Source: a virus (lineage: Duplodnaviria; Heunggongvirae; Uroviricota; Caudoviricetes). Taken from it: DNA of 64,000 nucleotides. Below are positions 59,994-64,000 of the stretch, piece after piece. The notes below the pieces were generated by a model. That model worked only from the letters and a program-made list of their open reading frames with translations. It was not told the DNA's origin and did no database searches. A program made the translations under genes and the position numbers. The DNA is taken from the IMG/VR virus record IMGVR_UViG_642979322_000022; one strand, 5' to 3'. Within the stretch, counting starts at the first letter, position 1; each line of letters starts with the position of its first letter.

Positions 59994-60067
59994 TATAAAA
60001 CTCCCTATTTTAATTTAAACTCCAGACTTAAATAGCTTTAACAAACATCTGCCTTACATGACAACAA

Positions 60068-60092
60068 AAACCGGAGCCGGACTCCGGTTTTG
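60068..60092 (-). terminator. terminator-like hairpin (copy of the 2232..2258 element)
   Basis: AAAAACCGGAGCCGGACTCCGGTTTT downstream of the gene ending at 60106. Confidence 0.45.
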
Positions 60093-60105
60093 TGAAGCTG
60101 TCGGG

Positions 60106-60375
60106 TTACTTCATCCCGCCAATATTTTCCCACGTCCCGTCAGCACGCAGGATTTGCAGCGGTCTTACCACGCACTGTATCTGCTTTTTATCCGCATCCA
60201 GTATCACCACCTGCGTGATTACCCTGTCCTGCTCCGGAATAATACCATTCTCATCGGACTCCAGGATGTCTGCCGGCCCCAGACGCAGTTGTGCTGTAAG
60301 TAACTCCCCGTCTTCACGGTCATCATGCTTTCCGTGCCCGCACAGACGCTGCATAAGTTTTTTTAGTATGTTCAT
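60106..60375 (-). CDS. small hypothetical protein downstream of tail fibre (second copy)
   Basis: 89 aa from MNILKKLMQRLCGHGKHDDREDGELL...; near-identical to 2272..2541. Confidence 0.5.
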   Translation of the reverse strand: MNILKKLMQRLCGHGKHDDREDGELLTAQLRLGPADILESDENGIIPEQDRVITQVVILDADKKQIQCVVRPLQILRADGTWENIGGMK

Positions 60376-60376
60376 G

Positions 60377-61690
60377 TCATTCTCCTGTTCTGCCTGTATC
60401 ACTGCCCACTTCATCAAGCCCCTTAACATCCTGCCACGGCCCGTCACCAAACCTGACCTGCAAATGCTGAAAAAAACCCTGAACCCGTGTGGTATCTTTG
60501 GGGGCAAGAAAGGTCAGTCCGGTGATGAGCGCACCATCTGTACCCGGGAACCAGCCATGGCTGTTTGTCTCAATAATGCTCGCCGGCCCCAGACGAAAAC
60601 GGATTTGTGTCTCCCCCGGGTCGCCCTTCGGTCCCTGAGGTCCGGTTGCCCCCACCGGGCCAGCCGCACCTGTTTCTCCTTTCGGTCCCTGTGGGCCTGC
60701 CGGGCCTGCTGCCCCGGTGTCTCCCTTTGGACCCTGTGGACCTGCATTTCCCGTCAGACCGGTCTCTCCCCGCTCTCCCCTGTCACCTTTCGGCCCCTGC
60801 GGGCCTGCCGGACCAGCATCACCTGCCGGTCCCCGTTCGCCGGTTGCCCCTGCCGGGCCGGTGTCTCCACGCTCTCCTTTATCTCCCTTCGGCCCCTGAG
60901 GACCCGCGGGCCCCGGTTCCCCCTTTGGCCCGGGAGGCCCCACCACGGTGGGGATTCGGTTTACGGCTTCTTCCGCCGCTATCCTGCTTTGTTCCGCTGA
61001 CTGTGCGCTTTCTGCTGACTCCCGGGCTTTTTCTGCTGCGGTCGTTGCATCCCTGGCTGCATTACCGGCTGCACTTTCTGCCGTCTTTTTTGACAACTCA
61101 GCATCTGTTGCACTTTGTAATGACTCACTGGCTTTTTGAGCGGCCGCAGAGGCCGAGGACGAGGACGCCTCCTCTGACTGCTTTGCAGCGGCTGCACTTT
61201 CTGCCGCCTGCCGGGCTGACTCCGATGCATCCCCTGCTGAAGTGTCAGCATTTGCAGCGTTCTCTTCTGCCTGACTGGCTGATATGCCGGCATTCCTCGC
61301 GGACGTCTCCGCCTCTCCGGCATTCTTCTTCGCCTCCTCAGCGTGACGCGCCGCTTCTTCCACCATCAGTTCAAAACGACGCAGTGCCTCCGGCCGGACG
61401 TCATCCTCCGACATGGCACCGAGAAAATCATTCAGCGTACCGGGTTGAGAATCTTCATACACGGTGATGGTCCCGGCATGTGACGGAGGAAATCCCTCCA
61501 CCAACAGAATGACGCTGTACTGACCGTACTCAACATCCATGCTGTAACGTCCGGCTTCATCCGGATTTTCAGAGGCCACCGTGTTCACCACCACCGTGCT
61601 GCTGGTTCGTCTGGCCTTCAGCACAATGGTGCAGTTCTGTACTGGTTTTCCTGTGCCATCTTTAAGCACGCCAGAAATTTTTACTGTCAT
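60377..61690 (-). CDS. phage side tail fibre protein with collagen-like repeats (second copy)
   Basis: 437 aa [17 protein letters not shown]...; about 95% identical to the 2543..3856 product. Confidence 0.8.
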
Positions 61691-61841
61691 ACTTTTCCAC
61701 CAATAAAAAAAGCCCGCAGCAGTGACGCCACGGGCTTCAGGACAGTGTAACTTTACGTTTCCTCAAACGCAGTTCACCCCATAAGGTGGATGAACCTGCG
61801 TATCATAACAATATTTACAGAAGATAAATCGGCGTCTGTTG

Positions 61842-62441
61842 TCAGAAACGGTATCCGATACCAACAATAAATGCATCCGATCGCCAGTCGCCACTACCGG
61901 AACCTTCATAAGCAAGGTCAATGGTCACGGATTCGGTCGGGTTAAACTGCACGCCAGCCCCCCACGCCAGAGACGTGTTGCTGTGGCGACCGTCATCACT
62001 TCCGGTCAGCACATCGTGCGTTTTCCCCTTGTTGTCAGTTACGCGGAGATAATCCCCGTAGAAAGTCGACACACGGCTGTAAGCCACACCCGCCATCGCA
62101 TACGCGCTGAACCATTCATTCACGCGTACAGACGGCCCCGCCATCACGCTGAACCAGCGGTTACGCACGGAATCTTCATGCCAGCGGGTATCGCTGTAGC
62201 GCGTTTTTTGCTCATCCTCAGCATTGGCATAACTGAAGGACGTAATCAGCCCCAGCGCGTCCATAAACTCATAACGGTATTTCACGTTAATCCCGTTCAG
62301 ATCATCACTACCGGGAACGTTCGTCGAGGCATGGAGATACCCCGCGCTCAGCGTGGACTGATGTTCTGCTGCACTCGCTGGCGTAGCAGCGGCGACCTGC
62401 CAGACTACTGCGGACAAAATAACAGCACATAATTTACGCAT
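61842..62441 (-). CDS. lom: Lom outer-membrane protein (second copy, divergent signal peptide)
   Basis: 199 aa ending GYRF; mature part near-identical to the first copy. Confidence 0.85.
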   Translation of the reverse strand: MRKLCAVILSAVVWQVAAATPASAAEHQSTLSAGYLHASTNVPGSDDLNGINVKYRYEFMDALGLITSFSYANAEDEQKTRYSDTRWHEDSVRNRWFSVMAGPSVRVNEWFSAYAMAGVAYSRVSTFYGDYLRVTDNKGKTHDVLTGSDDGRHSNTSLAWGAGVQFNPTESVTIDLAYEGSGSGDWRSDAFIVGIGYRF

Positions 62442-62464
62442 AATTACCTCTCGCTTTTCTGCAA

Positions 62465-62490
62465 TAAAAAAGGCGCCATTTCTGGCGCCC
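62465..62490 (-). terminator. rho-independent terminator between J and lom (second copy)
   Basis: AAAAAAGGCGCCATTTCTGGCGCC, same as the element at 4544..4568. Confidence 0.5.
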
Positions 62491-62508
62491 GTATCTGGGT
62501 TATAAAAT

Positions 62509-64000
62509 TCAGCTAATCGTGATGCCTGCAGTGGCTTTCTTCATCACCACAACCAGCAAATCGCTGATACTTGCTGTGGGATACCAGTTATTTACCAGCC
62601 ATGCTGACACCGAAAACTCCAGTGTCATGTGACCGTGACCGGCAGGCATATCAATAACACCACTGTAAATCAGCGTATTATCCAGCGCGGTACGGTTATA
62701 AATTTCAGCACCGTTTTTCCGCACTATCAGACGGCATGAGGAGTAAATATCAGTATGCTCTTTCTCATGTTTAGCGCCGCTGAATGCCACCGCCGGAATA
62801 ACAATCTGCCGGTCAAACGGCTGATCGTCATAAACCCTGACGGTAATGGTTCCTGATGGCCACCGCTCCGGTGCACGGGAGTCCCGGGGGAAAGCTTTGC
62901 CCACTGTTTTAACGAGATCGCCTTCAATCTGGTTCGCGGACAATTTTCCCAGAACCCGACAGTTCTCGTTAATCGTGACGTTGTTGAGCGTCCCGGAGTT
63001 CGCATTCACGTTACCGCTGATATCGGCATTTTTCGCCGTCAGCCGCCCGTCCGGTGTCAGGGAAAATGCCGGAGGATTACCGCCGCTGGTAATGGTGGGA
63101 GCCGTCAGATATTTCAGGAACACTTCATTCATGAATATCTGATCGCCCTGACCAACAAACATCGGCTTTGTGTTGCCATTCGCAGGATTAATCATCGCAA
63201 TCCTGTCTGCCGCCAGCAGCACCTGACTCTGCATGCCGTCAGAGGTGTTCTCAATACCGGCACCGATACCCGCAATATAAAGGCGTCCGTCCTGCATCTG
63301 CTGCAGCTTCACTGCCCACATGCTGTTCAGGTTATTATTTGTATCAACCTGAACCTTCTGTATCTGCTGGATCGCTGCACTCTGGTCTTCCAGTTTCTTA
63401 TTGACGGTCTGCGTGATTTCATTACTGACATCCGTGATGGACGTTCTGATTTCCGCCAGGTCAGGCGCAAGCTGACCGTTATCAATCTGAGTCCACAACT
63501 CCTGAGCCAGATGGGTTTTCCCTATCTCTCCTTTGAAAAAATCCAGATAGCCGGATGCATCATCACTCGGCTGGCCAACAGCCTCCACAAATGCCGATTT
63601 GCCAACGGTGTTCACACTGCGGATATAAAAGTAATAATCATGGCCCGGTTTGATATTGATACTGGCGGCTATCCAGTACAGCCCCGTGCCAAGGTAGCGG
63701 GCTGTGGTTTCAACCTGCCTGATATCGGTAATCCGCGTTTCCGAAAACCAGAACTCAAACTGTACCGTCGGGTCATACACCGCAAGACGCGGGACCGCTG
63801 TTATCTGAAAATAGCCCGGTGTCAGCTCAATCTGTGACGGCGCTGCCGGTGCGGCAATCCGGAACGATACCGACGCCGGATCGCCCTGCTGCCCCCACGC
63901 ATTTACCGCCCGGACTGTCAGCCTGTAGTTCCCCGGCGCCAGTTGCGTGAAGCGGTATGTGGTTTCCGTCGTCCGGGCCGTGCTGACCAGCCGCTCACTG
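62509..64000 (-). CDS. J: host specificity protein J, C-terminal part (continues beyond the window)
   Basis: Frame open to the window edge; near-identical to the C-terminal 490 aa of J at 4588..8064; the track start at 63780 is only an internal GTG. Confidence 0.85.

Follow-up and report, generated by a model that had tools for sequence, protein, structure and literature searches.

Why should a single stretch of bacteriophage DNA carry the same tail-tip genes twice, once near each end? The stretch considered here (the window: all 64,000 nucleotides of the IMG/VR virus record IMGVR_UViG_642979322_000022, Caudoviricetes) has at both ends the C-terminal part of a J gene, a lom gene and two tail fibre genes. 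The original prediction, made from the letters alone, took the two sets to be a direct repeat belonging to two lambdoid prophages in tandem, and a ready substrate for recombination that would delete or swap what lies between them. The window matches positions 2974824-3038823 of NZ_CP089270.1 (Escherichia coli O157:H7 strain M1300706002) with 0 mismatches in 64,000, and window 56000-64000 is 100% identical to Sp9 of O157:H7 Sakai, a prophage reportedly treated by Hayashi in 2001. We find that two related but different lambdoid prophages very probably sit in tandem at ompW through a shared attachment (att) core, and that their tail tips are alike because, on the sequence evidence, they are one cassette shared with patchwork exchange across the O157 lambdoid phage pool, not a duplicated chromosomal segment.

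Two Collinear Copies of One Tail-Tip Module

Self-BLAST of the window returned two direct matches, both with E = 0, between the left copy (copy A) and the right copy (copy B): 2205-3879 pairs with 60039-61717 (95.06% over 1680 nt) and 3961-6079 with 61882-64000 (93.64% over 2123 nt), the offset being 57.8-57.9 kb. Global alignment of 2205-6079 against 60039-64000, the comparison by which the prediction was to be checked, gives 3,963 columns and a collinear match with more than 250 differing positions inside the window. Identity is 93.4% without gaps and 91.3% with gaps, close to but slightly lower than the ~95% first estimated. Together with the Pfam assignments, these alignments confirm that modules of the same four genes lie at both ends in the same orientation. 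All four genes are intact and on the minus strand in both copies (Table 1), where the J domains FNIII, Phage-tail_3, Ig_J, Phage_Tail_Tip and Ig_GpJ_C are followed by Ail/Lom and then by the fibre genes, in the same order and on the same strand (E 1e-16 to 1e-122). Both copies are thus lambda-like tail-tip (host-recognition) modules. With J-lom-stf-tfa of phage lambda they share the order of the last genes of the late operon, the domain architecture of J, the Ail/Lom moron and hairpins around lom; in place of Stf/Tfa, however, they have a collagen-like O157 side fibre (phage_tail_N + Collagen + Phage_fiber_C) and a small Phage_fiber_C protein. For this O157 collagen-like fibre type, Ghosh 2012 is said to be the source for comparison.

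The spacing of ~58 kb holds as predicted, but the nearly 4 kb originally allotted to the repeat is only what the window end leaves of it. In NZ_CP089270.1 the repeat extends to window-equivalent 66135 and includes the whole 3477-bp J, so that it measures ~6.0 kb at 94.3% identity. It stops there because Sp9 no longer has I, K or the 3′ part of L, all of them tail genes; homology between the two prophages restarts within L (9970-10348 with 66248-66626). At the other side, the left edge of the repeat (2205 and 60039) lies 67 bp beyond the stop of the small Phage_fiber_C gene, just past a conserved hairpin, with two 1-bp indels close by; the cargo regions of the two prophages start at this edge.

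Within the module, lom is by far the most diverged gene (85% nt, 82% amino acid [aa] identity), with changes mostly in the signal peptide and the first third. The spacer between lom and the tail fibre gene is 151 bp in copy B versus 64 bp in copy A, and the 15 + 72 = 87 extra bp (61723-61837) account for the ~90-bp indel that had been proposed; judged from the alignment, though, the difference is replaced sequence and no clean indel. Terminator-like hairpins flank lom in both copies, and the one between J and lom is identical between them. These hairpins occupy conserved intergenic positions, but their totals are not above shuffle expectation and they are descriptive landmarks only. A hairpin-bracketed lom fits a separately exchanged moron. 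A partial third copy, consisting of a terminator and the last ~72 nt of a Phage_fiber_C gene, was found by self-BLAST at 55939-56105 (minus strand).

Attachment Sites at ompW

According to the annotation of NZ_CP089270.1, the locus reads from left to right trp-yciGFE, a 126-bp fragment of the ompW 3′ end, a prophage that we call prophage A, a second ompW-like fragment, Sp9 and an intact ompW. Prophage A comprises a cargo of an OspG-family kinase gene and IS1, the tail tip, a full lambda-type late operon, lysis genes, Q, replication, immunity, exo, xis and int; at ~45 kb (window up to 45067) it is apparently complete. Sp9, in the order 15-kb effector island, tail tip, HK97-type morphogenesis region, early region, xis and int, is a defective 58-kb prophage. 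A 28-bp att core, GTGGTATCGATATCCATGTACCACACTG, occurs in three exact direct copies on one strand, at window positions -338, 45033 and 103206 (att1 to att3). Alignment of the sites shows that the left one joins the yciE chromosome arm to a phage arm, the middle one has phage arms on both sides and the right one joins a phage arm to the intact ompW coding sequence. Moreover, the left flank of att2 equals that of att3 (the int side), and its right flank is homologous to that of att1 (the phage cargo end, 82%). The integrases of prophage A and Sp9 are identical at 376 of 377 residues, and the two excisionases carry one protein accession. The three att cores, the attP-like middle junction, the near-identical integrases and the intact ompW beyond Sp9 therefore argue for tandem lysogeny and not for segmental duplication. 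Indeed, the att structure, the integrases and the annotation of two full prophage units all support the two tandem lambdoid prophages that the original prediction had proposed, and the locus is built as a tandem lysogen is in the textbooks.

This arrangement has precedents. Sp9 of Sakai has the same 28-bp att core, ompW site and effector island, but there it stands alone at ompW, whereas in M1300706002 a second prophage lies between yciE and Sp9. In Sakai, spontaneous excision of Sp9 was shown experimentally, with packaging helped by other prophages (Asadulghani 2009, PMC2669165). Prophages at ompW (PPompWs), with an att of 121 bp, have been described in tandem in O157:H7 as type a1, in strain FRIK2069 (Nakamura et al. 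2021, PLoS Pathog, PMC8112680). There, too, two lambda-like prophages occupy ompW via one att and one of them has an nleA/nleH/nleF/espM/nleG island; PPompWs occur widely, those of the Sp9 type being defective. The cargo of the second PPompW differs, being an OspG-family kinase and IS1 here and an nleG variant with DUF4765 in the FRIK2069/TB21-1 type, and the tail-tip repeat as such is not discussed in that paper. The tandem arrangement at ompW is thus real but already described and typical of prophage-rich O157:H7, and as a finding it is ordinary.

Mosaic Similarity of the Copies

The resemblance of the two copies is strongly uneven. A perfect run of 603 bp is the longest (5411-6013 with 63332-63934), where none of 5,000 shuffles gave more than 247 bp; further perfect tracts measure 310 and 236 bp. 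For mismatches per 100 bp the variance is 50 and the mean 5.7, and identity per 100 bp ranges from 74 to 100%; it drops to 74-90% in lom and in a segment of J at ~62830-63130, and the lom/fibre spacer is unalignable. In our population searches, which covered 5,426 complete E. coli genomes, a query from the right end of the window matched 5,116 genomes, with 11-15 places each among the O157 genomes listed. The number of places that the module occupies per E. coli genome has a median of 3 and a maximum of 19. It is this breadth and patchiness that a cassette exchanged among the O157 lambdoid phages would present.

Natural variants indicate exchange within the module as well. Between copy A of the window and copy A of strain TW14359 there are 48 differing sites in three clusters; 925 bp of the tail-fibre gene hold 31 of them, and the 2.4 kb that follow, between the first two clusters, have none. 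Copy B of TW14359 (NC_013008.1, 1710000-1726000) equals copy B of the window, apart from one single-nucleotide polymorphism and one 9-bp indel, up to ~63130; beyond this point, which lies inside J, TW14359 has another N-terminal part of J with a 618-bp deletion, and tail genes of the lambda type, not the HK97 type. This configuration (Sp9-type island with fibre, lom and J C terminus, joined to that deleted J and those lambda-type tail genes) is present in 65 complete genomes, compared with 368 of the Sakai type. Judged from these comparisons, recombination within the tail-tip module is evident from the clustered differences and from the breakpoint internal to J. We also considered the TW14359 configuration as a product (the reciprocal duplication) of recombination between prophage A and Sp9, and rejected it: J and the tail genes of TW14359 are not those of prophage A (91.8% identity to copy A), and it is therefore a late-region swap and no recombinant of the two.

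Alternative Explanations

Gene conversion between the tandem copies (concerted evolution) could also have kept up or renewed such similarity once both prophages were integrated, in place of plain inheritance from the phage pool. Perfect tracts of 603, 310 and 236 bp within a 94% repeat are far above shuffle expectation and would suit conversion, and at 17 of the 31 tail-fibre sites that differ from copy A of TW14359, copy A of the window carries the Sp9 allele. At the other 14, however, the pattern is the opposite and the runs alternate, while lom and the spacer are still 15% diverged or unalignable. Furthermore, ~13 paralogous modules per genome might have served as donors. In the allele-sharing comparison of TW14359, SS17, TR01 and HB6, clustered exchange is visible and the donor is not identifiable. 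Conversion between the tandem partners is an explanation that we consider rather unlikely.

The remaining alternatives concern how the second copy came to its place. Since the effector islands of PPompWs carry captured attB sequences, including an ompW-like one of 121 bp (Nakamura et al. 2021, PMC8112680), prophage A might have entered an attB copy inside Sp9 (the attB-in-PP type of Nakamura) and not the chromosomal ompW. At its left att, however, it adjoins genuine chromosome (the native ompW 3′ end and the yciE flank), the end of Sp9 itself serves as its right att, the 28-bp core is exact at all three sites, and the annotation places no Sp9 sequence to its left, so that prophage A is not enclosed by Sp9 on both sides as an inner prophage is by an outer one; we regard such nesting as very improbable. 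That a tail-tip segment of 4-6 kb was duplicated within the chromosome (segmental duplication), which would account for direct and collinear copies, seems more improbable still. The 6% divergence is strongly heterogeneous, where a duplication would leave uniform high identity; the two copies belong to separate, complete prophages that each have an att, int and late operon of their own; and no duplicated flanks or novel junction are present, the flanks differing on both sides (unrelated cargo on one, homology ending at the Sp9 deletion on the other). The many places that the module occupies per genome speak against a duplication, too. Finally, prophage repeats are a classic source of misassembly, by mis-joining or collapse of a repeat, yet the likelihood of an artefact here is negligible: all 64 kb of the window match a closed genome without a difference, 36-84 independent complete genomes have the tandem junction as well, and two copies with more than 250 differences inside the window are no collapsed duplicate. 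Two prophages inserted in tandem, each with its own version of a circulating cassette, remains our preferred reading.

Table 1. Coordinates of the repeat copies, their genes and the surrounding prophage features in the window
Feature	Position	Strand	Identity between copies (aa)
Cargo end of prophage A (exchangeable effector locus, EEL): OspG-family kinase (549-1139, -) and IS1 (1315-2012); unique sequence left of copy A	1..2204	-	
Repeat copy A, block 1: Phage_fiber_C gene and collagen-repeat tail fibre of prophage A	2205..3879	-	
Repeat copy A, block 2: lom and complete J; partner within the window only up to 6079	3961..8222	-	
Prophage A xis (43540-43788) and int (43766-44896)	43540..44896	+	
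Middle att site (look-alike of the ompW 3′ end), attP-like; 28-bp core at 45033-45060	44942..45067	.	
Sp9 effector island (EEL); unique sequence left of copy B	45068..60038	.	
Repeat copy B, block 1: terminator downstream of tfC, Phage_fiber_C gene and collagen-repeat tail fibre of Sp9	60039..61717	-	
Copy B lom/tail-fibre spacer, with a different terminator-like hairpin at 61738-61709	61691..61841	-	
Repeat copy B, block 2: lom, J-lom hairpin (62490-62471) and C-terminal 496 codons of J (62509-64000)	61882..64000	-	
Phage_fiber_C protein, 89 aa	2272-2541 / 60106-60375	-	96.6%
Tail fibre (phage_tail_N + Collagen + Phage_fiber_C), 437 aa	2543-3856 / 60377-61690	-	95.9%
Ail/Lom, 199 aa	3921-4520 / 61842-62441	-	82.4%
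J	4588-8064 / 62509 onwards	-	97.5%

Possible Recombination between the Copies

What could the repeat do in such a tandem pair? Crossing-over of the direct copies would delete the body of prophage A together with the Sp9 effector island, and gene conversion between them would swap alleles. That the repeat is a substrate for recombination, as the original prediction held, is reasonable, given perfect tracts of up to 603 bp and the fact that the tail tip is the longest of the 17 collinear homology blocks between the complete prophages; that the A/Sp9 pair recombines at a meaningful rate is something we infer. Nor is the tail-tip repeat the sole substrate, the exo-xis-int-att block (2.6 kb at 97.4%) being another. 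Probably, Int-mediated excision at the shared att sites would be an easier route to the loss of either element, because the pair has its core and Int/Xis in common and excision of Sp9 is on record.

Several points weigh against a tandem pair that recombines through its tail tips. We built the predicted deletion product as a 16.4-kb query (the trp-yciE flank, the cargo of prophage A, a hybrid repeat crossed in the 603-bp identical tract, and the Sp9 tail genes), and this tail-tip x tail-tip product is present in 0 of the 5,426 complete E. coli genomes. At best, 83-84% of the query is covered, in 5-8 pieces, by matches that represent other configurations, with a different PPompW (DUF4765/nleG cargo and HK97-type tail). 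A divergence of ~6% lowers RecA recombination. In addition, any one of a genome's ~13 paralogous tail-tip modules, and not necessarily the tandem partner, might have donated the converted tracts. Either order of integration of the two phages is compatible with the structure.

Sp9 is without I, K and the 3′ part of L (window-equivalent ~66136-66610) and its portal gene is frameshifted, while its J, lom and fibre genes are intact. It cannot build its own tail tip; prophage A holds all the tail genes that Sp9 lost. The tandem pair might be a helper/defective couple, in which the apparently intact prophage A would supply I, K and part of L and, given the J-lom-fibre cassette and the int/att system common to both, recombination or co-excision could mobilise the 15-kb island on a viable phage genome, a scenario that we think doubtful.

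Distribution and Rearranged Relatives

The junction int-att-Sp9 island is present in 84 of the genomes searched, in 36 of them together with the early region of prophage A. The left end of prophage A is found in 112 genomes, and a match of ~100% in only four complete genomes, so that the combination of prophage A, with its OspG-like kinase cargo, and a Sakai-type Sp9 seems rare.

Prophage repeats of 5 kb or more serve as recombination substrates for large rearrangements in O157:H7 (Fitzgerald et al. 2021, PMC8743559). The ompW locus is split in TR01 and TB21-1, its halves being 0.6-1.2 Mb from each other and linked to other prophages; like the published rearrangements, these have breakpoints in prophages, here at the ompW locus. 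The Fitzgerald cases, however, are for the most part inversions and duplications involving prophages that are far apart and often inverted; a deletion between the two direct tandem copies considered here has not been seen. A comparable rearrangement was noted as type a2 (Nakamura et al. 2021, PMC8112680). In TR01 (NZ_CP033605.1, 2884500-2943806), the tail end of a prophage abuts yehQRS-btsRS (the mlrA locus), and the same prophage ends in a PPompW-type xis-int-ompW′ joined to the cargo end of prophage A; the Sp9-type island is 1.2 Mb off on the other strand, making this a large rearrangement with prophage breakpoints. TB21-1 (NZ_CP038292.1, 3167633-3195149) has a third kind of PPompW beside yciE, with a cargo of a frameshifted DUF4765 gene and an nleG-like pseudogene and with HK97-type tail genes, and its int-att-Sp9 junction is 590 kb away on the opposite strand. 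This PPompW is probably the FRIK2069 type of Nakamura et al. (2021, PMC8112680).

The ompW locus matters beyond its phage biology, as it holds a large share of the non-LEE (locus of enterocyte effacement) type III effectors of O157:H7 (nleA, nleF, nleH1-2, espM1 and nleG), and its deletion, duplication or mobilisation therefore affects virulence-gene content and strain typing. Such repeats are also the reason that assemblies of O157 from short reads are interrupted at prophages. The principle of tandem lambdoid prophages with shared, recombining modules is already established. To it, the present analysis adds that the repeat is 6 kb long, that the att sites prove tandem lysogeny, that the likeness of the copies is mosaic and that there are natural variants with a break in J, besides a negative search for the deletion.

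Cargo Regions and a Candidate Prophage Remnant

Both prophages carry effector genes of the type III secretion system (T3SS) between the fibre genes and the prophage end, an OspG_kinase gene downstream of copy A and T3SS_NleG (59419-59949), nleA and others downstream of copy B. Both cargo regions are exchangeable effector loci on this ground, the prophage A kinase being a predicted secreted effector. This kinase has 196 aa and a full OspG_kinase domain (E = 2e-90), and is much shorter than NleH1-2 (303 aa) of the neighbouring island; a literature search on TW14359, OspG and prophage found nothing. The Sp9 island contains nleG-like genes, espM1, nleG, ISEc8, nleF, nleH1-2, an integrase remnant and nleA (57754-59079, plus strand). 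Between ISEc8 and nleF, within a partial IS1414 remnant, RefSeq calls a 66-bp open reading frame at 53896-53961 an ‘EAST1 family heat-stable enterotoxin’, which is probably the truncated astA-like frame known from IS1414.

The Sp9 island also contains direct repeats of ~100 bp (53600-53699 and 57279-57378, 83% identical), which enclose IS remnants, nleF, nleH1-2, the Phage_fiber_C fragment with its terminator (55939-56105) and an integrase pseudogene. The pseudogene (56099-57093, plus strand) is truncated at its 5′ end and fused directly to the Phage_fiber_C fragment. This geometry, spanning 53600-57378, fits a former lambdoid prophage within the Sp9 island that lost the stretch between int and the tail fibre and left its effectors behind; the remnant may thus be a case of prophage-in-prophage integration, and its ~100-bp repeats may correspond to the 96-bp attB-in-PP_2 of Nakamura et al. 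(2021).

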